Of a DNA stretch of 64,000 nucleotides, positions 30,094 to 64,000 are shown one piece after another (within the stretch, counting starts at the first letter, position 1; each line of letters begins with the position of its first letter). Origin of the DNA: Candidatus Bathyarchaeota archaeon (lineage in GTDB: Archaea > Thermoproteota > Bathyarchaeia > Bathyarchaeales > Bathycorpusculaceae); NCBI GenBank assembly GCA_963768425.1, contig CAVYHV010000008.1:32001-96000 (forward strand). The letters are read 5' to 3'. The position numbers were made by a program, and so were the translations under genes. Below the pieces are notes generated by a model. The model searched no databases. It worked only from the letters and a program-made list of their open reading frames with translations, and was not told the DNA's origin.

Positions 30094-32205
30094 ATGGTCA
30101 CTGCAAGAGACCCCGTATGCGGCATGGATGTTGACACAGAAACAGCCCTCAGCGCCAAAATCGGCGACAGAACTTACTATTTTTGCAGCCAACAATGCCT
30201 TGACGTCTACACGGCACCAGAACGCGAACTCGAAGCAATGCAGCGGCGCGTTGCATTCACGTTAACTGGCGCCATAGCAGCCCTAGCTTTGAAAGTGATT
30301 ACACTTTTTGGTCTCATTACCGCAATAATGTATTTTGACGTTGTTGGAAAACTACGAGTTTACGACATCGCGGTGTTCATTGTATCGACACCTATAGTCT
30401 GGATTGCTGGGTATAGAATCTACAAGGGCGCTTATCAATCGCTTCGAAACCGCAACATAAACATGGATGTTCTGGTCACTGTCGGAGTTCTCGCAGGCTG
30501 GATTTACGGTGTCATAAACGTGTTCATCCTTCCTTCTGCCACGCAGCCAGGCTCAGGTTACATGGAAGTAGCCATCGGCATCTTAGCTTTCGTGCTGCTG
30601 GGAAGATATATCGAAGAGTTAATTCGACGACGCAGCGCCGCATCAATACGAAAACTGCTCGAACTTCAACCAACCATGGCAAGAGTCATCAGGGATGGCA
30701 AAGAAACCGACATATCAATGGACCAAGTGCAGGTTGGAGACGCGATTATTGTTAAGCCCGGAGAAAAAATCCCAATCGATGGAATTGTGACTGCAGGGTA
30801 TTCGTCAGTTGATGAGAAACTTATCACGGGCGAAGGCATTCCTGTTGAGAAAACTGTCGGAAGCGAAGTTGTCGGCGCCACAATAAACAAAACCGGGGTC
30901 CTGATAATAAAGGCGACTCGTATCGGCGACGAAACTGCCCTTGGACAAATTGTTCATCTTGTTGAAGAAGCCCAAGCCTCAAGTGCTCCCGTTCAAAGGT
31001 TTGCTGACCGTATTGTCAGATGGTTTGTCCCAATCATCTTGTCTGCAGCAGCCGTTTCATTTGCCTATTGGTTTGTGACAACCGGCAACTTCGCAACCGC
31101 ATTCCTTGTGCTGCTGGCTGTGATATTGATATCTTGCCCATGCGCTTTGGGAATAGCGACGCCGACAGCTATTCTTGCAGGTGTCGGAAAAGGCGCAGAG
31201 TACGGTGTTCTTCTTCGCAGTGGAGAATATGTTGAGAAGGCAAGAAAGCTAACGACTGTGGTTTTCGACAAGACTGGCACGTTGACAAAGGGTGAGCCAA
31301 GCGTAACCGACATCAAAACTTACAACGGGTGGGATGAACAAATGGTGCTTGCGTATGCAGGTTCAGCTGAGAAAGGTTCTGAGCATCCTTTAGCGGAAGC
31401 AATTCTTCTGAAAGCTAAATCCGACAAAGTTCATATTGAGCATGCAGATAATTTCGAAGCGTTGCCCGGCAAGGGCGTCGTGTGCTACGTGGAAAAAAGA
31501 AAGGTCCTGCTTGGGAATCGCAAGTTACTTCAGGAACAAGGAGTGTCCATCAGCCGAGAAGAGGGTGATTTGACATTGTTGGAATCACAGGGAAAAACCG
31601 TCATGATTCTTGCTGTTGACGGAAAGATTGTCGGATTAATTGCAGCAATGGACATCCTGAAAGAAAATGCTGCCGAAGCAGTGGTGCAATTGAAAGCCTT
31701 GAATTTGGAAGTTGCAATCCTAACAGGCGACAACGAGCGAACCGCCCGAGCAATAGCCCAGCAACTGGGAATCACCCAAGTAATCGCTAACGTTCTGCCA
31801 TGGCAAAAAGCCGACGTCATCAAAAATCTGCAGGCTGAAGGAAAAGTGGTAGCCATGGTCGGTGACGGAATAAACGATGCACCAGCACTTGCAATAGCCG
31901 ACATTGGAATAGCCATAGGTAGCGGGACGGACATTGCCAAAGAAACAGGCGGTATAGTGCTCATAAGAGACGACCTCAGGGACGTTGCCTTAGGAATCGA
32001 ACTAAGCAAAAAAACAATGCGAAAAATTGACACTAACCTGTTCTGGGCTTTTGCCTACAACGCCGTCATGATTCCAGTTGCCGCTGCTGGTTTGCTTAAT
32101 CCGATGTATGCAGCTGGAGCAATGGCAATAAGCAGCTTAACCGTGGTCAGCAACTCGGCACTCATTAAGTTGGTTAAATTTAAATCAAAGAAACTTAATG
32201 ACTAA
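30094..32205 (+). CDS. copA: Cu(I)-type P1B-ATPase with N-terminal YHS/TRASH domain
   Basis: DPVCGM..YFCSQQC, TGE, CPC, DKTGT, HP, GDGIND, YN, MAISS. Confidence 0.93.
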
Positions 32206-49593: not shown

Positions 49594-51983
49594 ATGATGG
49601 CAATGCAGAAACGCACCTTGCTTGCTAATTGCATTGATGTCTATAATCCTAATTCAAGCCTTTGATATGTCGGTGGCTTCAGGCAGCTCAGTTAGCACAG
49701 GTTCCAGTAGCGGCGGGTGGCCGATGTTTCGTCAAGACCCAAGCCACAGCGGCTACAACCCGGACACACCCTCAGCGAATTCTGCCCAATTGCTGTGGAA
49801 TTACTCAACTGGCAGGATGGTGCAGTCCTCCCCATCTTTTGCACAAGGCTTTGTCGTTGTGGGCTCACGAGACAGCCAAGTTTATTGTTTCAACGGTTCC
49901 ACCGGGGAAGTAATCTGGAAGTACCCAATCAGGTACGAAGTATGGTCCTCCCCAGCAATCTACGATCAATGCGTCTACGTCGGCGCCGACGACGGGTACC
50001 TTTACTGTCTTGACATTGAGACTGGGCATCCACTTTGGCGGACATTTGTCGGCGGCGAAGTACGGTCTTCCCCTGCAGTCGTCGGCGACATTGTCTACGT
50101 GAGTTCGCATAGTAACCTATGCGCCTTGAACGCTACAAACGGGAAAACGATTTGGAGTGTTCAAAACTTGAACCCAATTGATTCTTCGCCTGCAGTTTCA
50201 AACGGAGCAGTGTACATCGGCAGTGCCGACGATTGCGTTTACTCTTTTAATGCGTCCACAGGGCTCCAAATTTGGGTTCACCCACTTAGGACGTCTGACG
50301 CTTCTTCTCCCGCCGTCAACAACGGCATCGTTTACATTGGCTCTTACGATGGCTACATGTACGCCCTAAATGCTTCCACAGGCGCACAGGCTTGGAAGTA
50401 CCAGACAGCCGATGAAGTGGAATCTTCTCCAACAGTCGCTTACGGCTGCGTTTACTTTGGCTCCGACGACAACAACGTCTATTGCCTTAACTCGTCAACG
50501 GGGAGCAAAATCTGGCAGAGCGCAACCGGATATTGGGTAACATCTTCTCCGGCAGTCGCAGGCGGTAACGTTTACGTGGGCTCCCAAGACGACAACATCT
50601 ACTGTCTAAACGCCACAACAGGCGCCAAAGAATGGCTTTACCTGACAGGAAACATTATAGAATCATCACCTGCAATCGCAAACAACACTTTATACATCGG
50701 TTCAGACGACAGCAAAGTCTACGCCTTAGCCTTGACTAACGCGGCGGGTCAACTCACGGTTTCGCAACCTTCCAACCCCATATTTCTAACCACTATCGTG
50801 TTTGACGCCATCGCATGCACCATTGCCGCCTTTGCGGTTTTTGCAGTTGCTCGTTACGTTTACTTTTCTCGACGGCAGAACCGAAAAGATGAACCAAGAG
50901 ACGATTCAGAGAAAAATCTTTCCTGGCTTCAGAGGCACGCTGACGCCGTTTTCATTTTGGGGATTTTGGCTTTTTCAATGATCTTCTTCATTAACTTGGG
51001 GAGTGGCGTTCTTCAGACTTCTGATGAGCAAACGTATTCTCAATGGGCTTATCATATGTTAAAAACAGGGGATTATTTGACGCCTTGGGCTGACGGCGCC
51101 ATATCATTCGTGATTGGGAAGCCTCCATTGTTGATGTGGCTGATGTCTCTTAGCTACCAGGTTTTCGGCGTCACAAATTTTGCCTCTAGGATTTGGAGCG
51201 CAGGATTTGGTGCCTTGTCCTTGGTTATTATTTACTTTTTGGGAAAGAAACTCTATAATCGTCCAGTCGGATTCGTGTCGGCTCTCGTGTTGGGCACCTT
51301 CCTAACCTACTTCGTTTTCGCAAGGTACGCAATGACCGATGTCCCTTTAACGTGCTTCGCGGTGGCAAGCATATATTTCTTCGTTCTAAGCGAAGGGAAA
51401 GAAAATGTTGTTCGAAACGCGGTTTTTGGTGGCTTGTTTTTTGGGTTGGCGCTGATGACTAAGCAGCTCGCTGCCTTGTTGATTCCGCTAATCGTAGTTG
51501 CTTACTTGGTTGCAACGAGAAAGAGCCTGCGCTTTCTCTTCACGAAAGCTTTCAATCTCTTCTGGAGTGTTGGTATTTTGCTTTTTTCGCCTTGGCTGAT
51601 CTACATGGCCGTCCGTTTTGGGAATCAGTTTTGGCAGTGGTACTTCATCTACGCTGACGTAACAAGGTCAGCTGGCACTCTTGAGGGTCACTTTGCAGGC
51701 TACCTCTTCTACTTTAACTTCTTAGTCGCATAACGAAAACTGGCTTTGGTTAGCTCTTCTACCCATCGCCGTGGGGCTGTGTGCATACAACACTTTCTTT
51801 AGGCGCTTAAAACAGGATACACTGATTTTTCTGTGGATGGCAATCGTGCTGCTAGTGTTCTTGTTTGCACAAACAAAGATTTACTGGTATATAATGCCCG
51901 TTTTTCCAGCTTTCGCCATCGCCATTAGCAGCCTATTATACCAGCTTGCGAGCAAGATACGGCTTTTGCTTCGTCGCAAATAA
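49594..51983 (+). CDS. PQQ/BamB-like 8-bladed beta-propeller fused to an ArnT/PMT (GT-C) membrane glycosyltransferase (indels near both ends)
   Basis: Eight SSP-containing blades with TG..W motifs, then SDEQTY, KPPL, ASR, ALMTK and multiple TM segments in one frame. Confidence 0.85.
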
Positions 51984-52799
51984 TGGATTTTTAGCATATG
52001 CAAATTTTTGTTTTGATAGATAAATTGAAGTTAAGCGAATCCCGAGGATTTGTGTTAAGCATCGCTTTCCTTTTTCCCAGTAGTAAAGAAAAAGGTCTTT
52101 TACCCAGTTATGGAAGACAGAGTCAGTGCCGTAGAAGCCTGAATAGTCCATTTTTCCGTCAATTTGACGCAAGCATACACCTGCATATTTCTCGGTAAGG
52201 GCGACTATTCCGGGAAGGTCAGATAACCCCCGCAGTTCAACGTTTCTCTGCGCAACAGGCGGGCTTGCCGCTGCTACATTTTGCATTGGGATAAGCATTT
52301 TTATCTGAATTCCAGCCTCCACCTTCCTATTCATAATAGGAATCATGTACTCAGGAATCGTGCCTTCGCCTATTGCCCAAATGTATTGGGTCGCTTCAGT
52401 AAACCACTTTGAACCCTTATTCAAGCTTTCTATCGTGTCCATAAGCAACTCCGCCTTTGAAAGCTCGCTTACCCTGCTCACGAACTGGCTCGGAAACTGC
52501 GTTAAATCATGTGTCGAAAAATAGCTTTTATACTTAAAGATAAAATCCAGCGACTCTGAAATCTGAAGCACGATTTTGCCGAACTCTGCAAGAGCAAAAG
52601 CGCCGTCAGGTTGTCTATGAACCAGTGAAGCTGCACCTAGCCGTTCCAACTGCCGAAAAGCCTCTGTTGGGGTGACATCGAGTCTTCGGGCGATTTCCTG
52701 CATCTTTAGGTTTTCACCTCTTAATTCTCTTAAAATACTCAGGCGACTTCCGCTGGCAAGTTCAAAAAACAATTTTTCGAGTCCAGAATCTCTGCTCAT
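51936..52799 (-). CDS. ArsR-like wHTH regulator with C-terminal DUF1724-like domain (3' tail uncertain)
   Basis: LFFELAS.SRL.IL, EAFRQLERL, W..DLF.YYWEKGK. Confidence 0.85.
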   Translation of the reverse strand: MSRDSGLEKLFFELASGSRLSILRELRGENLKMQEIARRLDVTPTEAFRQLERLGAASLVHRQPDGAFALAEFGKIVLQISESLDFIFKYKSYFSTHDLTQFPSQFVSRVSELSKAELLMDTIESLNKGSKWFTEATQYIWAIGEGTIPEYMIPIMNRKVEAGIQIKMLIPMQNVAAASPPVAQRNVELRGLSDLPGIVALTEKYAGVCLRQIDGKMDYSGFYGTDSVFHNWVKDLFLYYWEKGKRCLTQILGIRLTSIYLSKQKFAYAKNPLFATKQKPYLARKLV

Positions 52800-52908
52800 T
52801 CTTCCACCGTGTACTGAGTTTTTTGCTCCAATGCTTACTTCTAAGCACCTGAATCAAATAAAACTAATCACAGTTAGGAAGGATTAAAGTTACCTGAGGA
52901 GAAATAAT

Positions 52909-53163
52909 ATGGGAAATATCAAGGAACGTGTGTTCTCAATTGAACTGAAGGCGAGAAGACACCTCAAAAACATCAGTTTAACCAACGGCTCGTTCGATTC
53001 AGTGCTAGTTGAAGGCACCTTAGGCGAGCTAGTGCAAGCCAGTTTCAAGGAAGGCGTAATTCTAGAAGTTATCGGCAAAAATGGCACTCTGAGAATAGAC
53101 CTCACGGAAGACGAAATCAGCAAAACAGCAGAACAAACAATAATCGAGGCAGAAGCACCATGA
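52909..53163 (+). CDS. small hypothetical protein
   Basis: 84-aa ORF with RBS, overlapping the next start. Confidence 0.75.
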   Translation: MGNIKERVFSIELKARRHLKNISLTNGSFDSVLVEGTLGELVQASFKEGVILEVIGKNGTLRIDLTEDEISKTAEQTIIEAEAP

Positions 53164-53930
53164 CTAAGACATCAGTCACCGTTGACGCGAGATGGAAAAG
53201 CCTCTATCGAATCGGCGCAATAGCTGCCTTGGTTGCCGCATTGGGTTTCCGAAGAAACATGGGTGCAGAAATGACAATGTTCTTTGGGGCAGCACCGAAA
53301 ACTGCGGCTGGCTGGTTCACGCTGCTTCAGAACAACAGTTTACTGGGGATAATTTCCCTCAACTTTTTTGACATCATTGACTACGCTCTGGTCGGCATCA
53401 TGTTTGTAGCTCTCTACGTTGCGCTCAGAAAAACCAGCCGAATTTTCGCGGCAATAGCCACCTCAATGTGTTTAACGGGAATAATTGTTTACGTTGTTTC
53501 AAGCACATCATTCAAAATGCTTTCCCTCAGCAACCAATACACCAGCGCCTCGACAGCCACGCAGAAAACAGCTTTGCTGGCAGCTGCGCAAACAGTGCTT
53601 GCAAAAGGTGTCCCTGGCGCTGGCTACCAAGGCGTAGGCGGCGTAGTCAGCATGTTTCTCATTGCTATTGCTGGCTTAGTAATATCGGTTGTAATGCTTC
53701 GGAGCAAAATCTTCTATAGAATAACGGGTTACGTGGGAATCATGGCAAGCGTCTTTGACTTGGCTTACCTCATGGGCGTCGGGTCTGTGCCATCGGCTAG
53801 TTTCAATCTGTGGTCCAGCATCTTCGTAGGCGGCGCAGGGTTACTGTTGATGATTTGGCACCTTCTTGTAGGGATAAAACTGTATAATATTGCTGGGCAA
53901 TCGAAGGTCAAAGGTGGTGATACCCAATGA
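53160..53930 (+). CDS. DUF4386-like multi-pass membrane protein
   Basis: About 6-7 TM segments; MLSLSNQY..A pattern. Confidence 0.75.
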   Translation: MTKTSVTVDARWKSLYRIGAIAALVAALGFRRNMGAEMTMFFGAAPKTAAGWFTLLQNNSLLGIISLNFFDIIDYALVGIMFVALYVALRKTSRIFAAIATSMCLTGIIVYVVSSTSFKMLSLSNQYTSASTATQKTALLAAAQTVLAKGVPGAGYQGVGGVVSMFLIAIAGLVISVVMLRSKIFYRITGYVGIMASVFDLAYLMGVGSVPSASFNLWSSIFVGGAGLLLMIWHLLVGIKLYNIAGQSKVKGGDTQ

Positions 53931-54481
53931 GTAAAGCACTTATTGTTTTCGGCACTCGCTACGGCGCAGCAGCCAGCACGTCAGAAGAGATCGCAAAAAT
54001 CATGCTCCAAAAAGGCTTCAAGGTCGATTTGAGAGACGCGAAAAAAGAAAAAGTCAAGAGCATAGCTGAATATGACCTCATCGTCGTCGGCAGCGGAATC
54101 CAAATTAACAGGTGGACAAGCGAACCTGAAGACTTCCTTAAGAAATTTCAGAAGCAACTTGCAACTAAGAAGGTGGCGCTCTTCGTCTGCTGCGGCTCAG
54201 CCTCTGATAAAAGTAAACCTGAACTGGCTGTAAATGCGAAACGGAAGTATCTTGAAGAAAAAGCTGCCAAATACAATCTGCAACCTGTCGCGTTGGGCTT
54301 GTTCGGAGGAATCTACAACTACAACAATATGCCTTGGTTTGCCAAAAAAGCAATGAACGCAGACAGACCCCGAGTAGAAGCCGCCTACAAAGAAACAGAA
54401 CCCGGAATCTATGACACAAGAGACCTCAACGCCATCCGAGCTTGGGCAGAAAAACTTGCCGATATTCCAAACTTCGCGTAG
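53927..54481 (+). CDS. flavodoxin domain protein (HemG/Flavodoxin_5-like)
   Basis: GTRYGAA, YDLIVVGSGI, DTRD..AIRAWA. Confidence 0.88.
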   Translation: MSKALIVFGTRYGAAASTSEEIAKIMLQKGFKVDLRDAKKEKVKSIAEYDLIVVGSGIQINRWTSEPEDFLKKFQKQLATKKVALFVCCGSASDKSKPELAVNAKRKYLEEKAAKYNLQPVALGLFGGIYNYNNMPWFAKKAMNADRPRVEAAYKETEPGIYDTRDLNAIRAWAEKLADIPNFA

Positions 54482-54547
54482 AGACTTTTAATGGTGAAAA
54501 TCGTGAAACTCAGCGCTGGTTAGACGAGAAATGAAGTTGAACGGCCG

Positions 54548-54892
54548 CTAAGGCAGGGTTTCGCCCCATTGCCGAATTGCCTCAAAGACAGGAAGAAACG
54601 TCAAACCCTGCTCGGTTAAAGTGTACTCAACTCTGGGCGGTACCTCAGGATATACTGTCCTCGTGACAATTTTACTTTTTTCAAGGTCTCTGAGATGCTT
54701 CGTGATGGTTTTGGAGTTCACGTCGCCCATTCTTTTTTGCAGTTCGCTAAAACGCAGTGTCCCGTCCTTAAGGCTCCAGATAATGAATAGGTTCCATTTG
54801 CTGCCGATTATTCCAAGCACACGAACAAACTTCAAATGTGCTTTATTTTCAGATTCCAAGACAATCCACCTATACTTACTTATTGGAAACAA
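54548..54892 (-). CDS. HxlR family wHTH regulator
   Basis: IGSKW, RFSEL, YPEVPPRVEYTLT. Confidence 0.93.
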   Translation of the reverse strand: MFPISKYRWIVLESENKAHLKFVRVLGIIGSKWNLFIIWSLKDGTLRFSELQKRMGDVNSKTITKHLRDLEKSKIVTRTVYPEVPPRVEYTLTEQGLTFLPVFEAIRQWGETLP

Positions 54893-54962
54893 TGTTACTA
54901 TTAGACTTCTGGCGTATTTTAATATTGCTGGTGAATAAAGTAATCATGTCTAAAGAGATAAA

Positions 54963-55655
54963 ATGGATAGTGGTGCAAAAATGAAAGTGCTAGCTATAAA
55001 CGGAAGCGGCAGAAAACATTGGAACACGGCAATTCTGCTGAATAAAGCCCTTGAAGGCGCAGCGTCGAAAGGAGCCCAGACAGAACTCATTCACCTATAC
55101 GACCTTAATTTCAAAGGATGCACAAGCTGCTATGAATGCAAGCTAAAGAATGGGGCATCATTTGGCAAATGCTCCGTTAAAGATGAATTATCAGTTGTGC
55201 TTGGCAAGATTGAAGCGGCTGACGCGCTAATCCTCGGGTCGCCTATTTATCTGGGAACGATACCTGGCGTAATGAAGTCGTTTCTGGAGCGTTTGGTGAC
55301 CCCTTACATGGGTTTAGACGCCGACGGTGACCTAGTTTCCCTCTTCCCGAGACAAATACCGACTGGGTTCATTCATACCACGGGAGGCGACGAAAACCAC
55401 CTGAAAGCTATGGGAGTTGAAAACCACATCAGAAGCAACGAAATGATGATGAAAATGGTTTTCGGATCGGTGGAATCACTCGTCGTTTCGGATACACTGC
55501 ACGTTGACGACTACTCAAAGTACGCTATGCCTTTTGACGCCGAAGAAAAAATGAAGAGGAATAAAGAAGTGTTTCCTTTGGACCGTGCGAAAGCGTTTGA
55601 AATGGGAGTTAGCCTTACCCAGGAAAAGTCGGTCCCAAAGGAGCAGGCGGTTTAG
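54963..55655 (+). CDS. NADPH-dependent FMN reductase / iron-sulfur flavoprotein family
   Basis: INGS.R..NT, CTSCYEC..C, GSPIY, FLERL. Confidence 0.88.
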   Translation: MDSGAKMKVLAINGSGRKHWNTAILLNKALEGAASKGAQTELIHLYDLNFKGCTSCYECKLKNGASFGKCSVKDELSVVLGKIEAADALILGSPIYLGTIPGVMKSFLERLVTPYMGLDADGDLVSLFPRQIPTGFIHTTGGDENHLKAMGVENHIRSNEMMMKMVFGSVESLVVSDTLHVDDYSKYAMPFDAEEKMKRNKEVFPLDRAKAFEMGVSLTQEKSVPKEQAV

Positions 55656-56513
55656 GTGAGCGTTGACATTTACTATTTCTCAGGCACAGGCAATTCACTG
55701 GTAGTCGCCAGAGATATTTCACAAAAAACTAATGGAAAACTGGTATCCATGCCTTCGGTCATGAGTAAAGACAGAATTGAAACCGATGCCCAGGTGATCG
55801 GAGTTGTTTTTCCAATTCAGGGAATGTTCCGCGTTCCGTCTATAGTCGAGAGATTTGTTGGGAAACTGGATGGCGTTAGTTCAAAGTACATTTTTGCGGT
55901 CACCACATTCGGAAGCATGCCGGTCTGGGTAATCAAAAGATTTCGCAAAGTGGTCGAATCTTGTGGCGGCAAGCTTTCAGCAGGTTTCGCAGTACACATG
56001 CCAATGAACAACATCACTCTTCCCTCATTCACGTACAGCGGAGAAGTTGGAAGTAAAGAACAGAAGTTATTTGCAGACTGCCGCGGCAAAGTCAATTTTA
56101 TTTGTGAATACGTAAACGCCCGAAAGGAAGGCAAATTTGAAGCATCCAACAGGCTGTTCCTTTCCCTGTTTTATCCTGTTGACAGAATATATGGGCGATG
56201 GCGAATCGAAAGCAAATACAATAAACTTAAAAACTCACATCTCACCCAAGACGAGCTTTTTCCTCTGATGGATGTCAGCTTCCACTCTGATGAGAAATGC
56301 GATGGCTGCGCAATTTGCTCAAGAATCTGCCCTGTTGGCAACATAAAAATGGTTGTTGGTCAGCCCGTTTGGCAGCATCACTGTGAACGGTGCATGGCAT
56401 GCTTGCAGTGGTGTCCGAAGGAAGCTATAGAATTTGACCATGATTCGATTGGCAGAAAAAGGTATCATCACCCAGATGTGAAGCTTTCAGACATGTTGAC
56501 GGTTAAGAACTAA
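55656..56513 (+). CDS. EFR1 family flavodoxin-ferredoxin fusion
   Basis: YFSGTGNS, MP.N, CDGCAIC..ICP, CERCMAC..WCP, RYHHP. Confidence 0.92.
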   Translation: MSVDIYYFSGTGNSLVVARDISQKTNGKLVSMPSVMSKDRIETDAQVIGVVFPIQGMFRVPSIVERFVGKLDGVSSKYIFAVTTFGSMPVWVIKRFRKVVESCGGKLSAGFAVHMPMNNITLPSFTYSGEVGSKEQKLFADCRGKVNFICEYVNARKEGKFEASNRLFLSLFYPVDRIYGRWRIESKYNKLKNSHLTQDELFPLMDVSFHSDEKCDGCAICSRICPVGNIKMVVGQPVWQHHCERCMACLQWCPKEAIEFDHDSIGRKRYHHPDVKLSDMLTVKN

Positions 56514-56675
56514 CAATACAAATCGAGAAAAGCACAATTAAAGAATAAGTGCTATGAGCGAGAGAATGGATAATATTTCTGGCGAAAGAGTTAATATTCA
56601 CATATTTCCTCGAATTTGACTTTAAAAGGCGCTAATTGTGTTAAACAAGTTTCATTTTTCGATTAAGTAAAAGGT

Positions 56676-56716
56676 TGGCGTCCCGCTGGGATGCGTTTAA
56701 ACTATTAAGCGGATCC
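56676..56716 (-). repeat. repeat unit 1: tRNA 3'-end fragment plus 28-bp palindrome (att-like)
   Basis: TGGCGTCCCGCTG GGATGCGTTTAA ACTA TTAAGCGGATCC. Confidence 0.85.
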
Positions 56717-56956
56717 TGAAGGAATAGCGGACTGAAACCTTTTCTGACATGAACAAAGTGAGCCGAACCGGGAACTTACTCCAAAGGGTTCAGAACCTTA
56801 ATAATATGTCAGAAACGCCAAAGGTTCCTTTAAGTGCTGACTGATACCTACATTTGGTTAGAAACTCAACTGGTTACTTTCGTTGTTAATTCGGAATGCA
56901 ACCACACCATTTTTATTTCACTTAGGAAAGTAGCCTATCGTTGAGGATGCTGATTT

Positions 56957-59792
56957 ATGACTACACAAAATAATCCTAATTATGCGGCGGAACCAAAAAC
57001 CATCAAAATACCTCCAGTTTACTTATATCTCTTCTCTGAAGGGGATGGAAAAAACAAGAAACTTTTAGGAGGTAAAGGCGCCGGTCTTTGCGAGATGACC
57101 CAGATTGGTTTACCGGTTCCCCCAGGGTTCGTGATAACAACCCAAGCTTGCCTCGAGTATTTTGATGGCGGCTTCAAGCTGCCGAAGGGACTTGCGGACC
57201 AAGTTAGGCAGGCGATGTCTCAGCTGGAGAAATCCATGAAACTGGGCTTTGGTGATTCTGAGAAGCCGCTTCTGGTTTCCGTCAGAAGTGGCGCGGCAAT
57301 TTCAATGCCCGGCATGATGGATACGGTCCTCAATTTGGGACTCAACGACGAGACCGTCCTCGGACTAATCAAGAGAAGCGGAGATGAACGCTTCGGCTGG
57401 GATTCGTACCGCCGATTTATCTCGCTTTTTGGCGAGATCGTGCTGAAAATTAACAGTGACCTTTTCCACAATGCGATGGAAGCCCTGAAGAAGGAAAGGA
57501 ATGCGGCATATGACATGACCCTTTCTTCGTTCGACCTTCAGGGGCATGTTGAAACTTTCAAGCGTATAATTGAGGATAACGTTGGCAAACCTATCCCGAA
57601 TGACCCATATGAGCAGCTATTTATGGCTATAGAAGCGGTGTTTGCCTCTTGGAATGGAAAGAGAGCTGTAGATTATAGGCGTGAATTCAAAATCACACCT
57701 GAGATTGCTAATGGCACTGCGGTGAACGTACAGGCGATGGTTTTTGGCAACGTTGGTGAGCATTCTGCGACTGGAGTAGTTTTCACGAGGAATCCTAGCA
57801 CCGGCGAAAACGTGCTTTTTGGAGATTACTTAGAGCGGGCGCAGGGTGAGGACATTGTGGCCGGTATTCGAACTCCAAAGCCCATCCTTGAGATGAAACA
57901 GGCCATGCCCGAAGTTCATCGGGAATTGTTGAAGGTTCGGGAGACGCTTGAGACGCATTTTCGGGAAATTCAGGATATGGAGTTCACGGTGGAGAATGGG
58001 AAGCTGTTCATGCTTCAGACCCGTTCTGCAAAAATGAACATTGCAGCTGGGATGAAGACCTCGGTTGACTTGGTTAATGAAGGCTTGATTACGAAGGAAC
58101 AAGCACTGACGAGGCTTGATGCAGCCCAGCTTACTCAACTGATGTATAGCCAAATAGACCCGGAAAACAAAACTCCGCCCGTTACGGTTGGGTTGGGGGT
58201 TTCGCCCGGCGCCGCTTCTGGCGAAGTAGTGTTTGACGCAGATGAGGCTGAGCGGCAGAGCAAGACGCACGGCAAAAAAATTATCCTGCTCAGAGAGCAA
58301 ACTAAGCCTGAGGATATTCACGGTTTTTTCGCGGCGCAGGGCATCCTGACCACTGTTGGTGGGAAGACGAGTCACGCCGCCGTCGTTGCTAGGGGTATGG
58401 GTAAGCCATGCGTAACCGGAGCAGGGGGCATCAAGATTAATGCCGTAGACGAAGAGCGCGACGATTGGCGACCACAAAATCATTCAGGGTGATGTTATCA
58501 CGATAGATGGCACTTCTGGCAAGGTTTGGCTGGGTGAGGTTTCGATGGTGGAGCCAGAATTCTCAAAGGATATGAACACCATCCTGAAGTGGGCAGATGA
58601 GTTCCGCAGATTGGGAGTGCGAACGAACGTGGATACTCCGTCTGACGCGGCGAAGGCGCTTAGGTTCGGGGCGGAAGGAATTGGTTTGTGCCGCACGGAA
58701 AGGATGTTCAACGCTGCCGACCGAATCGGGATATTCCAGGAGATGATTTTGGCTGATTCGCCCGAGGATAGGGCTGCTACCCTGCGGAGGCTTCAGCCTT
58801 TGCAGAAGGAAGATTTCAAGGCCATGTTGAGGGTGATGCAGGGTTTCCCGGTCACAATACGGCTTCTTGATCCGCCGCTCCACGAGTTTCTGCCGTCGGA
58901 AGAGGAGATCCAGCGGCAAATCGACGTGTTGCAGAAGAGCAAGGTTGCTCTGGATAATGTTTGTAGGTTGCCAGAGATTCTTCGAACTTTAGACCCGCAG
59001 CTTGAACCATTCCTCACCGGGGATCAGCAAATGCTGAACAGTCTGGCGCGGCTTCAGAAGTCCGAGCTTGACAAGAAGCTGGAAACTCTCCAGAAGATAC
59101 GCGTCTTGAAAGAAGTTAATCCGATGCTGGGTCACCGCGGCGTAAGATTAGGAATTACTTACCCTGAAATCTATGAGACCCAAGTGGAAGCCATTCTTGA
59201 AGCGGCTGCAGAGCTTATCAAGGAAAAGGTTGCGGTTAAAGTGGAAATCATGGTTCCGAACGTCTGCACTGCAGAGGAACTGAAGCGGGTGGAGGAACTC
59301 ATCAAACGCGTCGAGCAGCAAGTCACTGAAAAAACTGGCGTAATCGTTCCGTACAAGTTTGGCTCAATGATTGAAGTCGTTAGGGCTTGCATGCGTGCCG
59401 GGAAACTGGCTGAGATGGCGGAGTTTTTCAGTTTTGGGACTAACGACCTGACTCAGGCAACGTTCAGCTTTTCGAGGGAAGATGCAGAGAACAAGTTCCT
59501 TCCGCTTTACAATCAGTTGAAGATTTTGCAGGATAACCCCTTTGAAATTCTGGACGTTAAGGGTGTTGGGCGACTGATGTCTATAACTGTGGAGTGGGGG
59601 CGAAAGAGCCGGCCCAATTTGGAGATAGGGATATGTGGCGAGCAAGGCGGTGAACCTTCTTCTATAGAATTTTGCCATGCTATAGGCTTGGATTACGTCA
59701 GTTGCTCACCCTATAGAATTTCTATTGCAAGGTTAGCTGCGGCGCAAGCCGCCATTAAGGAGAAAAAGGGCGAGCTAAAACAGTTTAAATAA
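56957..59792 (+). CDS. ppdK: pyruvate,phosphate dikinase (1 indel near 58460)
   Basis: LLGGKGA, PLLVSVRSGA..SMPGMMDT, GGKTSHAAVVARG, GIGLCRTE, NPMLGHRG, SFGTNDLTQ, GICGE.GG. Confidence 0.96.
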
Positions 59793-59876
59793 CACTCCTG
59801 ACAAGAATTATTTCTCCATTTCTTGCTTCAATATTTTAGTTAGCGTAAGATTTCTTGGAAAAATGATTGAATCCAA

Positions 59877-59918
59877 TGGCGGGCCCGCTGGGATGCGCTT
59901 AAATAATTAAGCGAATCC
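59877..59918 (-). repeat. repeat unit 2: 18-nt tRNA 3' end with CCA plus 28-bp palindrome (att-like)
   Basis: TGGCGGGCCCGCTG GGATGCGCTTAA ATAA TTAAGCGAATCC; reverse complement contains ATCCCAGCGGGCCCGCCA. Confidence 0.9.
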
Positions 59919-60677
59919 TCAACGCACTTAATTTTGAGTTGCCTCAGGTGCACCTTGGTCACCAACCCAAATTGAAAATCTGCCACATATCGGTTTTTCT
60001 ATTCGGTTAGCTTGCGCCGTATTAGTGTGAATTGCCGTCATTTATGACAAGTCGGGTTCTTGTTGGCATCTGGACAAACCTCAGCGGTTTGCTGTGTGTC
60101 CTCTTTAGTAATCTCCAAAGCATCGTCTCAGGACATATTACATTTCTGTTACTTGGGAGGCGCCCTAGCCGTTCGGATTACTTAGAACTAAATCAGGCTC
60201 AACATCGGGATTGCTTCAGAAACTGGCTCCCCAAACTTTCGCTAAATGATGAGCCACATATTCAGCCGCGTCCAGACAAACAGACTCTCCCTAACCTTAT
60301 CAAGGAAAGCTTGTTCTCGACAAACCGATAAGAATCTTTCAACTGATCAATAGTTTCTTGAGTTTTAGGTTTTCTTCTGCAGTGTTTATGTGTCATACTA
60401 ACAAGCCGCACTCCCAACTTTTGGATGAAGAGGGCGAAGAATGAAACAAAGTGGAGCTATCGCTAGCCGCCTAATATCGAACGCAGTAAATATAGCCACT
60501 TTCTTAAAAAAATTATTTGTTACGTCTTTTATCCCATGCAGGCGCGATTCATCAGAAGCATGTAAGTATTTTAATTGATGTCTAAACAGATGTGTTTCGA
60601 CAACTTTTTGATCAATTTTCATTAACGATCTAGTTTAAAAGACCCTTCTAACTACTGCATTATTAAGCGATGTTTTT

Positions 60678-61085
60678 ATGAGTAAAAAATTTAAAACTGT
60701 AAAGCAAAAAGTGATTATTAATGCCTCTCCCCAAGAAGTTTATGACGCCTATATTGACCCGAAAAAACGCAGCGAATTCACAGGATACAAAGCTACGGGT
60801 AAACCAGTGGTCGACGGCAAATTCACGGGTATTGACGGGCACATTTATGGGAAACTCCTTGAGCTTGAGGATGGAAAACGCTTAGTTCTAGAATGGACTT
60901 CTACCGATTATGATTATGGTCCTTCAAAGTTAGAGTTATGTTTCAACAAAGTGCCTGCAGGAACAGAGCTTGATATAGTAATTTCGGATGTTCCAGAAGA
61001 CCAAGCAGATGAAGACGCCGATGCCTGGACACAGTATTGGTGGGACCCACTGAAAAAGTACTTCAGCGATAAATCCAAAGCCTAA
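60678..61085 (+). CDS. SRPBCC/Aha1-like domain protein
   Basis: INASPQEVYDAY.DP, C-terminal W..YWWDPLKKYF. Confidence 0.9.
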   Translation: MSKKFKTVKQKVIINASPQEVYDAYIDPKKRSEFTGYKATGKPVVDGKFTGIDGHIYGKLLELEDGKRLVLEWTSTDYDYGPSKLELCFNKVPAGTELDIVISDVPEDQADEDADAWTQYWWDPLKKYFSDKSKA

Positions 61086-61439
61086 TTGACCAGTCAGTTA
61101 AGCCGAATTAGGCAACCCGCATTTCTTGTTCTCTATGTATCTATCTTTGGCTATGATTAAGAAGATCGTGGCTGGAACAGCAAGCAACAATATCAGCGAT
61201 ATAAAAATGGCCCATTGCATTGTTGAATTGAGACAAAAAATGATACTGATTGTTACGGTCCAATAACTTCCCCAACATCAATTTTGATATTCTTTCCTTG
61301 CAAATTAAGAAGGAAGGATAACAGGAGTTTGAGTGTACCGCTGCTAAACGCTTATTTCCATTTTCACACGGCACATTCGATTCCCATCAAACAACCTCTT
61401 GATTGCAATTAGCGCATCACGACTCCAAGATCATTTGCA

Positions 61440-61850
61440 GGCTTCACCCCAAATTTCTATAGCAAAGGATGTGAGCGCCCAATGCCAACCACTCTGCTCT
61501 GCAACGTACTCCCAAATTCCTTATCTAAGCGTTTATTCCTTCTCAGGATGCGGCGACTAACTTGGTGACGAGTAACCTTGAACTTCACAAGCTTTAAAGC
61601 TAAATCTTTCGGTAACAAGCCAGGCGAACCTTACTCAAAGAGCAAGCATAATTTCTCGGTCAACCTTATCGTCACAGGATATGCGCTCAATAATTGATTG
61701 GTCAAAACTGAAAGAGACCTTCAAGCCAGCAAAGATAGTACGGAGCATAGCTTGACCTCTTCAACCTCGAGCTAAGGTTTGTTTAAGAAGCTGCTGATTA
61801 TACTTCAAACGCCCAATCTTATTGCTCTGATTACGCTTCTTTTGGAGTTT
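61440..61850 (-). pseudogene. decayed wHTH-like gene (several frameshifts and stops)
   Basis: Across frames: KIGRLKYNQQLLKQ..EVEEVKAMLRTIFAGLK..IERISCDDKVDREIM..GSPGLLPKDLA.KL..FKVTRHQVSRRI...EQSGWHWALTSFA. Confidence 0.6.
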
Positions 61851-61938
61851 TTAAACGTTATTTTGACACAAACTGCAACGGTTTCAGCCGCAGTCTGCCC
61901 AGCAATGGTTTTTCAGAGACAGCCATCCGTTTTCTAAA

Positions 61939-61980
61939 TTGCAGGTCTAGTGGGATTCGCTTAAACTATTAAGCAAATCC
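61939..61980 (-). repeat. repeat unit 3: degenerate tRNA 3'-end fragment plus 28-bp palindrome
   Basis: TTGCAGGTCTAGTG GGATTCGCTTAA ACTA TTAAGCAAATCC, about 46 bp downstream of tRNA-Arg. Confidence 0.8.
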
Positions 61981-62026
61981 TAAACCAAAAGTAAACAAAA
62001 GCCCAACTTTAACATTACAAAGATAA

Positions 62027-62103
62027 CGGGCTCGCTGGGATTTGAACCCAGGATTCTCGGCTCCGGAGGCCTGATGCCTTAATCCGTGCTAGACTACGAG
62101 CCC
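62027..62103 (-). tRNA. tRNA-Arg(CCG), CCA not encoded
   Basis: GGGCTCG/CGAGCCC acceptor stem, CT-CCG-GA anticodon loop, CTGGG-TTCAAAT-CCCAG T arm; one extra A in the anticodon stem (bulge or read error). Confidence 0.92.
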
Positions 62104-62147
62104 ACACTTCATCAAACCAAACAATCCAGTAAATTTAAAGTAGCCGT

Positions 62148-62669
62148 TTATTCCTGGATTAATTCTTCGTCTATCCACCATGCCTTCTTCTTGCCTGACC
62201 GTTCCCCACCGTAATACTCAATGACGGATTTGCCAGCCTGTTTCCTTGAGGTTTTTTGGATTCTCCTTAGCCTGTTCAGTACTAGCCACCTGTTGGTTTT
62301 AAGGTACTCCGCCAACTCCGGTGTGGTTGCGCTCTTGTAATGCGTCAAGTACTCCATGATCTTGTGGTCGACCTCGTCCAGGCAAAAGCTGTGCGGGTTG
62401 GTTTTTCCATGCTGAAAAGTAAGAAGCTCTAAATCGGCAAGGTACTTTCTTATTTCGCCCAGCTCCCCTTCGATTTTGCCCATCCGCTCTTCCAAAGCCA
62501 AAACCTTGTCGGCCTTAGGCGTTTTCTCGAGTTTTTCGCTTATAGCTTCTCTGATAAAGTTGCTCCTGTCTCCTTCTGGAATACGCAGAGCCATCTCTTG
62601 GTAGACCGCTTCTGGTAATTTCACTGAAATTGTCTTTACTTGACTCAATTTAGCGCTCCCCTTTGGCAT
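62148..62669 (-). CDS. RHH + coiled-coil + wHTH DNA-binding protein
   Basis: TISVKLP...RSNFIREAI RHH; ATTPELAEYLKTNRWLVLNRL HTH. Confidence 0.8.
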   Translation of the reverse strand: MPKGSAKLSQVKTISVKLPEAVYQEMALRIPEGDRSNFIREAISEKLEKTPKADKVLALEERMGKIEGELGEIRKYLADLELLTFQHGKTNPHSFCLDEVDHKIMEYLTHYKSATTPELAEYLKTNRWLVLNRLRRIQKTSRKQAGKSVIEYYGGERSGKKKAWWIDEELIQE

Positions 62670-62919
62670 GTCATATCGACACTTACGTATTTCATTTTTT
62701 CCATAGTCAGCCCACTCGTTTACGAAAAATTAGATCCGTTGTATACCCCGCTCTCAATCGCAAGGCATGAAGCGGTTCGTAACGGCATTATGTTGAGGAG
62801 GATGGGTGAGTTTTAACCTGCAAGCTTAGCCGCTGAAGACATAGAGTACACTTCAATTCAGCAGATACTGTAGAAACTGGAGAAACGCTTAACGCCGGTA
62901 GAGAAAACCTAAGTTAAAG

Positions 62920-63483
62920 TTACTCTAGACAGATGGGTTGACCTACCAACTTAGCTAGCTCTATGTATCGTTGCTCAACCGTTTCGTGGATTTGGCTCCG
63001 AAGGTCTTCTGCTCCCAAGTTTTTCTCTTTCAACGCTGCCACTTTTTTGGCTAGGTCCGCATCGCCCATCCCAATGAACCAGGCTTCGAAGTCGCCGCGG
63101 TTCATGTGAAACAGTACGGACTCGGAATCCGCTTTTTCAACTTTGATTGCGAAATCCCGGATGCCGTGCGCATGTAAATTGAGAGGTCTCCCCACGCCGG
63201 CGAAGAAGTGGAACGCTTTGTCATGCGGCGCATAAGATAAAATCGCCTCAGCTTTTTCCTTGCTTAAATCGGGCATCTGGAGCGCTTCTTTTCCTTTGTT
63301 AGTTATGGCGTACAGCCCTTTTTCAGGAGTGCTCACGTACCCCATTCGTACGAGCCCCAAAATATGCATCATTGTAGGCTTGAAGTCTTTGCCGCTTTCC
63401 TTCGCCACATCCGTAGCCTTCACTGGTTTGTCGATCCGCAACAGGGTTTCCAGTATTTCTTTCTTGATAGGGGATAAACTCAT
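62920..63483 (-). CDS. wHTH + DUF5752 domain protein
   Basis: N-terminal wHTH; KAFHF...SVLFHMNRGDFEAWF..LA. Confidence 0.8.
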   Translation of the reverse strand: MSLSPIKKEILETLLRIDKPVKATDVAKESGKDFKPTMMHILGLVRMGYVSTPEKGLYAITNKGKEALQMPDLSKEKAEAILSYAPHDKAFHFFAGVGRPLNLHAHGIRDFAIKVEKADSESVLFHMNRGDFEAWFIGMGDADLAKKVAALKEKNLGAEDLRSQIHETVEQRYIELAKLVGQPICLE

Positions 63484-63651
63484 TTAAAGGCACCTTGCCA
63501 ATTAGGCTATGTGCAGCTTCCTAATCAAACTTTTCCCCTACAGCTGCTTCGAAGCTTTCTTTTTCGATGTTCCGCTCTTTGCCAACAGCGAGTTAAGCAA
63601 AGCTTTAGTATCAAGATTCCCATCCTAATGGTGAACTGGTGAAAGTTTAGG

Positions 63652-64000
63652 ATGAAACTTGCAGTCTTTGTTTATGAGTATCCACCAAAAATTGTTGGTG
63701 GATTAGGCACTTACGCGGCTGAAATAACTAAGAAAGTTTGTTTTGGACGATCATGATGTAACTGTTTTCACGATGAACGATGACGCCGGCTCTTTGCCTA
63801 CCCGGGAGATTTGGCGGGGAATCGAGATTCACCGTCCCCTCCACATAGACATTTCTGATTCGCTGCCTGATGTGATTGCGGAGGACATAAAGAAGTGGGG
63901 TAGAGGGCTTCATTTCTTCGGCAAACTCATGGTTTACAATTACTTGTCAGCGGCCAAACTCATCAACGAATTGATCAAGAAAGAAAACATGAAATACGAT
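63652..64000 (+). CDS. GT4 family glycosyltransferase, N-terminal part (indels; truncated by window edge)
   Basis: MKLAVFVYEYPPKIVGGLGTYA, HDVTVFT, GIEIHR. Confidence 0.85.

Follow-up and report, generated by a model that had tools for sequence, protein, structure and literature searches.

What are the three short units, each a palindrome fused to a piece of a tRNA gene, that recur downstream of the tRNA-Arg(CCG) gene of a Candidatus Bathyarchaeota archaeon, and how did they come to lie there? The units are found in a stretch of 64,000 nucleotides (assembly GCA_963768425.1, contig CAVYHV010000008.1, forward-strand positions 32,001 to 96,000), which we call the window; positions given below are window coordinates unless a genome or contig is named. 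The genome of the window is denoted G000 and other genomes G001 and so on, with C used for contigs, L for loci and X for public runs. A first-pass annotation of the window, made from its sequence alone, had proposed that the units delimit small modules captured by a recombinase acting in trans. Our analysis favors a more ordinary answer, namely that the units are very probably attachment (att) junctions of integrative elements specific for tRNA-Arg genes, stacked and decayed behind tRNA-Arg(CCG).

The palindrome GGATKCGYTTAA-N4-TTAAGCRRATCC was placed by a pattern scan at 56689-56716, 59891-59918 and 61953-61980 and at no other site in the 64 kb, a count of three where 0.01 would be expected by chance and which none of 100 shuffles reached. 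The sole tRNA in the window, per ARAGORN and Rfam (RF00005, 45.4 bits), is tRNA-Arg(CCG), encoded on the minus strand at 62026-62104; it is intact and would be the integration target, on the attL side. The three units, which we call U3 (61939-61980), U2 (59877-59918) and U1 (56676-56716), all lie on the minus strand as well, 45 nt, 2.1 kb and 5.3 kb downstream of the tRNA, and their coordinates, orientation and spacing were correctly described in the first-pass annotation. Read on the tRNA strand, a unit consists of the 28-bp palindrome and, directly abutting it, a tRNA 3'-end fragment corresponding to the last 18 nt of the gene, from T-loop nucleotide 59 onward. The fragment in U2 had been matched to the resident tRNA end, and the reported 14/15 match to tRNA-Arg(CCG) is correct, the resident gene having one different base and no encoded CCA. 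The tRNA fragments are nevertheless no copies of the resident end; that of U2 agrees at 18/18 positions, encoded CCA included, with the 3' end of another gene, tRNA-Arg(GCG) (C25:29981-30058). The tRNA-end part carries a one-base deletion in U1 and is degenerate in U3 (61939-61952). Conservation ends at the outer edge of the palindrome on one side and at the tRNA CCA on the other, across the four full copies in G000, the units in the loci that we fetched and 60 further matches, and Logan metagenome contigs diverge at the unit edges, at 59869/59885 and 59919 for U2 and at 61950 and 61982 for U3. An intact tRNA at one border and co-oriented displaced 3' tRNA fragments (U1-U3) at the other are features of a tRNA-gene (tDNA) island.

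The unit was searched for in relatives with up to 3 mismatches allowed and with the reversed pattern as a control. Beyond the window, G000 holds one more full copy, the fourth (C19:1253-1280), as well as degenerate ones on C18, C14, C11, C10 and C28. The pattern was found in 16 of 36 other genomes of the genus, in 1-7 copies each and often near contig ends, and in none of the 24 genomes sampled from the order's other families, the reversed control giving zero everywhere. An exact scan of one genome per species (185,579 genomes) returned 60 matches, 60/60 in metagenome-assembled genomes (MAGs) of Bathyarchaeia/Bathyarchaeota; a scan of IMG/VR for the unit returned 0, and the elements are not among catalogued viral contigs. 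In the 60 exact matches, the CGG and CCC positions that follow ATCCCA carry the tRNA-Arg acceptor letter in 47-52 of 60 cases each, and the core varies in step with the Arg isoacceptor, its first position being G, C or T and its fifth G or A. One or more units lie downstream of, and co-oriented with, a tRNA-Arg gene (CCG, GCG or TCT) at 11 loci in 9 genomes; among 15 loci taken as the unit with a range of -5/+15 kb, a co-oriented tRNA-Arg falls within range at five and stands at 21 kb at a sixth. The only recurrent neighbors are a paralogue of the TATA-binding protein (TBP; 3 loci) and large secreted repeat proteins, with no constant partner gene. Neighboring genes often encode large PQQ/NosD/PKD secreted proteins.

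The tRNA-Arg(CCG) locus itself can be compared across relatives. Its outer flanks are syntenic in G023, G003, G035 and G030, and each of these genomes carries different DNA from the tRNA to the distal unit, as would be expected from the serial accumulation of bounded, variable DNA that had been proposed for the window. The cargo comprises ppdK and an SRPBCC gene in G000, NosD/PQQ proteins in G023, an ABC transporter in G035 and unknown proteins in G003. At the same locus, G030 (C3:290400-330399) carries an intact 21.3-kb element, which reads, from the tRNA outward, 130 nt, a convergent gene for a 427-aa protein, a 419-aa PF00589 recombinase, a ParA-like ATPase, HsdR/M/S as a complete type I restriction-modification system, an AAA_21 ATPase, a TBP paralogue and the unit, followed by the conserved radical-SAM distal flank. 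The 18-bp cores at its two ends are identical at 18/18 positions, and a half-palindrome lies 6 nt after the CCA in attL. A related order is found on G026:C107, where type I restriction-modification genes, TBP and a palindrome-core are followed by a convergent recombinase gene homologous to that of the G030 427-aa protein, an attP-like arrangement in permuted form. A TBP gene also adjoins a unit on G026:C143. A decayed case is seen in G003: behind tRNA-Arg(TCT) come the remnant of a convergent integrase, an insertion sequence (rve) and a unit.

Two cases locate the recombination junctions, both within the core identical to the tRNA and outside the palindrome, as the annotation's notion of att junctions with displaced tRNA 3' ends would have it. 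G001 (contig C3) and G012 (contig C6) share a 14.5-kb element at 99.99% identity, and the identity sets in exactly at tRNA nucleotide 59 (A/ATCCCAG); upstream of this point lies the rest of tRNA-Arg(CCG) in G001 and a degenerate palindrome in G012. These genomes belong to different species, and at least 14.5 kb at 99.99% identity implies a very recent transfer. The DNA by the G012 palindrome (L168:1-4000, G012:C6:14500-18500) is part of a gene family that numbers, in this genus, dozens of copies per genome at 64-68% identity, and a DNA search with the region upstream of that palindrome returned this multi-copy family, without locus-specific information.

The second case comes from run X2, in which two overlapping contigs run from 54145 to 54607, then through 4 extra letters and 56650-56678, and then continue with 62027-62700. 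At the joint of 56678 to 62027 the tRNA 3' end directly abuts the outer flank of U1, an attR-type unit, and the entire U1-U3 block of 5.35 kb is missing, which makes the joint an empty site. Because the joined cores of U1 and the tRNA share only about 10 nt, the joint is not an artefact of assembly at k=31. Both cases are presence/absence polymorphisms with the junction in the attB/attP identity block. The 45-nt spacer between the tRNA 3' end and U3 (61981-62025, minus strand), which is conserved in G023 and G020, is missing from the X2 empty-site contig together with U3, and both are therefore inserted DNA, the spacer lying on the P' arm. The same contig also lacks 54608-56649, with the FMN reductase and Fer4 genes, and has the 4 other letters in their place. 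No circle and no single-module deletion joint (U1-U2 or U2-U3) was found among the Logan contigs aligned, only the whole-array joint; Logan contig cover is missing at about 54.9-56.4 kb and 60.5-61.6 kb. In run X1 the contig depth is similar on both sides of U2, and among the contigs listed none is shown bridging it.

Several arrangements together suggest that the attP form of these elements is palindrome-core-spacer-palindrome. Stretches of exactly this composition occur at L067, L129, L146 and L147 and in a contig of run X5, a tRNA followed by a short spacer and a palindrome is found in many species, and the X2 empty site and the half-palindrome in the G030 attL point the same way. The elements would target the 3' ends of tRNA-Arg genes in one genus of peat/soil Bathyarchaeia. 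Their attP would carry on its P arm the 28-bp imperfect palindrome, which abuts with a 4-nt overlap a 14-18-bp core equal to tRNA-Arg from nucleotide 59 to the 3' end; many copies have a second palindrome on the P' arm, at 4-45 nt from the core. A tyrosine recombinase would cross over within the core. Integration would regenerate the tRNA, leaving an attL made of the tRNA and P' and, at the far end, an attR made of the palindrome, the displaced tRNA end and the old flank. Repeated integration at one tRNA, or into the core of an existing unit, would build a tandem stack in which one unit is kept per junction, and the island in the window would later have lost all recombinase and maintenance genes.

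Candidates for the recombinase were sought inside and outside the window. The first-pass annotation had seen no integrase there, and indeed a profile search gave no PF00589 or PF16795 recombinase match inside the window, a tblastn search with six integrases against 50000-64000 gave nothing significant, and neither did a finer search of 61000-62060 for integrase remnants; a recombinase able to act on the units would, as had been supposed, be encoded elsewhere. An integrase inside the island is present at the orthologous G030 locus and survives as a remnant in G003. The 427-aa protein of G030 has no Pfam, PHROG or PDB sequence match. Aligned with Pfam-positive integrases, the 427-432-aa proteins encoded by G030 and G026:C107 show the catalytic R...LR...GH...Y motifs of tyrosine recombinases (GLR, xVLR, GHK and RY columns) and are divergent members of that group; two homologues of the 427-aa protein coincide with weak PF00589 matches (G003:C1:230099-231358 and 896119-897372; E values of 3e-7 and 2e-4, respectively). 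Within G001-G036, units are present in 8 of 9 genomes with a G030-type recombinase and in 8 of 27 without one; the genomes being related, this co-occurrence is only a hint.

G000 has no homologue of either G030 recombinase. It encodes five recombinases above the PF00589 cut-off, all outside the window, one of which adjoins a degenerate unit on C28. There (G000:C28:17561-19163), the gene of a 453-aa PF00589 integrase converges on a unit whose core resembles tRNA-Arg(TCT), with 200 nt between its 3' end and the unit. G000 has no other integrase-unit pair, and no second att repeat was found beyond the integrase. A 382-aa open reading frame (ORF) beside tRNA-Arg(TCT) on C14 was considered as an integrase and rejected, as it is not integrase-like. 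Elsewhere, loci L152-L163 hold genes for divergent tyrosine recombinases of about 430 aa, with Tyr for the usual His in the HxxR box, located about 90 nt downstream of tRNAs and co-directional with them, and a CTCCC-TTTT-GGGAG inverted repeat directly follows each of these tRNAs (Gly, Pro, Ala, Val, Arg). Contigs C6 and C5 of G016 (L058 and L062) start with a common 4.6-kb integrase-bearing element that is 98% identical between them and runs exactly up to a tRNA-like 3' end (...CCAGCGGCCCCACCA), beyond which the contigs diverge.

Several observations weigh against our interpretation of the units. The island holds neither a recombinase nor a recognizable remnant of one, and the link between its modules and an integrase would follow from analogy with other genomes. 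Which recombinase is cognate would also have to be squared with the G030-type family, most members of which lie co-directionally just after other tRNAs (Gly, Pro, Ala, Val, Arg), where the P' motif is another one and the palindrome is missing, and with an attR in G001 that lacks the palindrome. The palindrome itself has a putative role only: it may be bound by the recombinase or by an accessory protein. The order of insertion can likewise be given only presumptively: the unit closest to the tRNA, U3, has degenerated furthest and is common to G023 and G020, which misfits an order with the newest unit next to the tRNA. The X2 joint was seen in a single run, in Logan contigs that stem from a relative 90-96% alike and in which the short sides of the joint measure 27-29 nt, and the empty-site junction is absent from 120 assembled genomes of the genus, in a search for the exact pattern that is no proof of absence.

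The units also set the borders of the island, which proved longer than first described. The three units of the array stand as reported, and to these a fourth, truncated one can be added: the 12-mer GGATTCGCTTAA, the exact left palindrome arm, recurs at 52031-52042 on the same (minus) strand, and its three occurrences in the window compare with 0.01 expected. The flank of this unit, U0, is homologous to the P-arm of unit L134, the DNA on its inner side is homologous to that beside a complete unit in G065:C57, including the HTH-regulator and flavodoxin genes, and a contig of run X1 has a complete palindrome at the place of U0. Distal synteny resumes at about 51964 in G035 and at about 49.3 kb in G003 and G023. 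Given the U0 unit and the synteny that resumes near 51964, the island is the stretch 52031-62026, about 10 kb in four segments, with U0 as its distal edge.

One of the four is the 45-nt spacer between the tRNA and U3. The other segments, the modules, which bear 0-5 genes each in both orientations, can be taken from the distal edge inward. M0 (52043-56675) carries, by Pfam, genes for an HTH regulator (51936-52799, minus strand), DUF4386 (53160-53930), a flavodoxin (53927-54481), FMN reductase (54963-55655) and Fer4 (55656-56513), and is missing, by synteny, from the orthologous locus in G035, G003 and G023. M1 (56717-59876) contains ppdK (56957-59792, plus strand), annotated as two ORFs due to a frameshift near 58450. 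The frameshift consists of one extra base at 58450-58452, which is left out in all covering contigs, near-identical to the window, of the public peat runs X1, X2 and X3; the split ppdK may therefore be an assembly error or strain-specific, and perhaps no pseudogene. M2 (59919-61938) holds an SRPBCC/AHSA1-like ORF (60678-61085, plus strand; Pfam PF08327) and short ORFs without family matches. Its stretch adjoining U3 aligns to G023 with frame-breaking indels, and the flank of U3 is also conserved in G023 over about 250 bp. Streptococcal cis-mobilizable elements (CIMEs) are integrase-less segments flanked by att sites that occur in tandem with other elements at one tRNA/att locus, and M0, M1 and M2 resemble them in being flanked by att sites and having no recombination genes.

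This likeness leads to a livelier alternative, close to the cassette-like capture originally proposed, in which the segments between units are non-autonomous and the locus is an active platform: a recombinase supplied in trans would excise a segment as a circle with one palindrome-core site and re-insert it at a tRNA-Arg or at another unit. Each module does lie between co-oriented cores, and its excision would yield an attP-like circle. Junctions of a palindrome-core with the P' of another element occur in G012, L099, L067, L129 and L147 and show that a unit can stand where an incoming element is joined; the borders of presence and absence of the whole U1-U3 block fall precisely in the core, part of M0 adjoins a complete unit in G065, and a recombinase could be drawn from among the five others in G000. 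However, ppdK, patchy in the genus (15 of 41 genomes), has no unit behind its orthologues in 5/5 relatives examined, and G000 has a second, intact copy on the same contig outside the window (C8:212916-214148, 59% identical to the window copy); none of this points to unit-bounded cassettes. Segments of 0-5 genes in both orientations with decayed DNA, no circle or single-module joint among the aligned contigs, and a sampled (G030-type) integrase family that G000 lacks are likewise hard to reconcile with small mobile modules. The full-size G030 element at the same locus shows that decay of ordinary integrated elements would explain the integrase-less modules and give the same picture with no new mechanism. 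We consider the platform unlikely, and it is just as doubtful that the unit is a portable, self-sufficient site by which any DNA lying between units (ppdK, for example, or the flavodoxin/FMN-reductase block) might leave as a circle with one unit on it and be re-inserted at a tRNA-Arg gene or another unit by a visiting element's recombinase. That the integrase-less segments are still mobilized in trans has only a modest chance of being true. If the unit were such a portable site, it would amount to an archaeal tRNA-anchored analogue of accretion-mobilization/cassette exchange, spreading metabolic genes among co-occurring peat Bathyarchaeia.

The remaining alternatives concern the palindrome itself. 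Sites used by Xer recombinases (Xer/dif), with the elements that exploit them (IMEX) and the pdif modules, are 28-bp imperfect palindromes that bracket modules, and the first-pass annotation had drawn this analogy. The palindrome here has the same length and bracketing, its inverted arms allow an 11-6-11 reading, and a strong PF00589 match on C30 may be the host Xer, so that modules might have been inserted at a crossover site of host XerA. The junctions, in contrast, lie in the tRNA core and not in the palindrome center, and the sites share one orientation, are invariably joined to a tRNA-Arg end and occur in several copies (4 full and at least 3 degenerate ones in G000, up to 7 in relatives), where dimer resolution would use a single chromosomal site. 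The intact elements bear their own recombinases. The central 4 nt exist in 16 variants among the 60 exact matches. Strand exchange by tyrosine recombinases needs an identical overlap in both sites, which excludes an exchange between such unlike centers. The Xer analogy does not survive these findings, and we hold it to be extremely improbable. A structured RNA or a terminator/insulator, to which the tRNA fragment would be linked incidentally, is only slightly less improbable. The palindrome can form a 12-bp hairpin and often stands where a gene ends, as it does 85 nt behind ppdK and behind the TBP genes in G030 and G026, but only the tRNA reaches the Rfam gathering score in the window, and the fusion to the tRNA core has zero spacing in the fetched-locus units and the 60 exact matches, whatever the neighboring genes. 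Among 62 distinct palindromes the arms are conserved as sequence, with pair 5-24 mismatched in 40 and pair 8-21 in 20 and compensatory change in just 2 cells, a pattern that a dimeric DNA-binding site would fit better than an RNA hairpin. An integron reading, which calls for an IntI-type integrase, an attI site and arrayed single promoterless genes that each end in attC, was rejected, as there is no recombinase beside the array and the modules bear 0-5 genes in both orientations. A split-tRNA or tRNA-intron reading was rejected too, since there are complete tRNA-Arg genes and the surroundings of the units hold no 5' partner.

Attachment junctions of tRNA-Arg-specific elements have close counterparts among known systems. 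Elements of the SSV1/pNOB8 type use an archaeal tyrosine recombinase, target tRNA genes (tRNA-Arg in the case of SSV1) and leave scars downstream of them, and the elements described here share these three properties. The attP of the SSV type lies inside the integrase gene, which is split on integration; the recombinase genes of G030, in contrast, are intact and outside the core, which spans only 14-18 bp from T-loop nucleotide 59. In lambda-like attP sites, conserved and repeated arm-type protein-binding motifs flank the crossover core. The conserved motifs that recur here, on the P arm and frequently also on P', are similar in layout, with protein binding putative, and differ in that the palindrome is a 12-4-12 inverted repeat directly abutting the core. 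With streptococcal CIMEs and accretion-mobilization (cf. PMC13651849), the island has integrase-less att-flanked segments in tandem in common; it differs in the domain of life and the recombinase family, and its mobilization in trans is putative.

The Islander work defines tDNA islands by a regenerated tRNA and a displaced fragment, counts tandem arrays and lists a T-stem attP class (PMC4383910). By that description, the window island has the intact tRNA and, at the opposite end, the co-oriented displaced fragment; the cargo varies, intact copies carry an integrase, and elements accrete in tandem. It differs in being integrase-less, for which it would fail the Islander filter, in the constant fusion of the fragment to a 28-bp palindrome, and in its Bathyarchaeia hosts. 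The accessible sections of a paper on Bathyarchaeia viruses mention viral integrases and contain no att sites (PMC10848311). A full-text literature search found no description of the unit or of Bathyarchaeia att sites, which is a weak negative.

The window thus holds an ordinary genomic island with an unusually tidy site signature, and it reveals no new recombination principle. The 28-bp palindrome with the tRNA-Arg 3' end from nucleotide 59 provides a precise, searchable att signature for the integrative elements of an uncultivated and abundant archaeal class, and, in MAGs, whose assemblies usually break at island borders, it places these borders with single-nucleotide precision. The signature also marks tRNA-Arg genes in these archaea as hot spots of gene flux, for restriction-modification systems, secreted proteins, ppdK and redox proteins.

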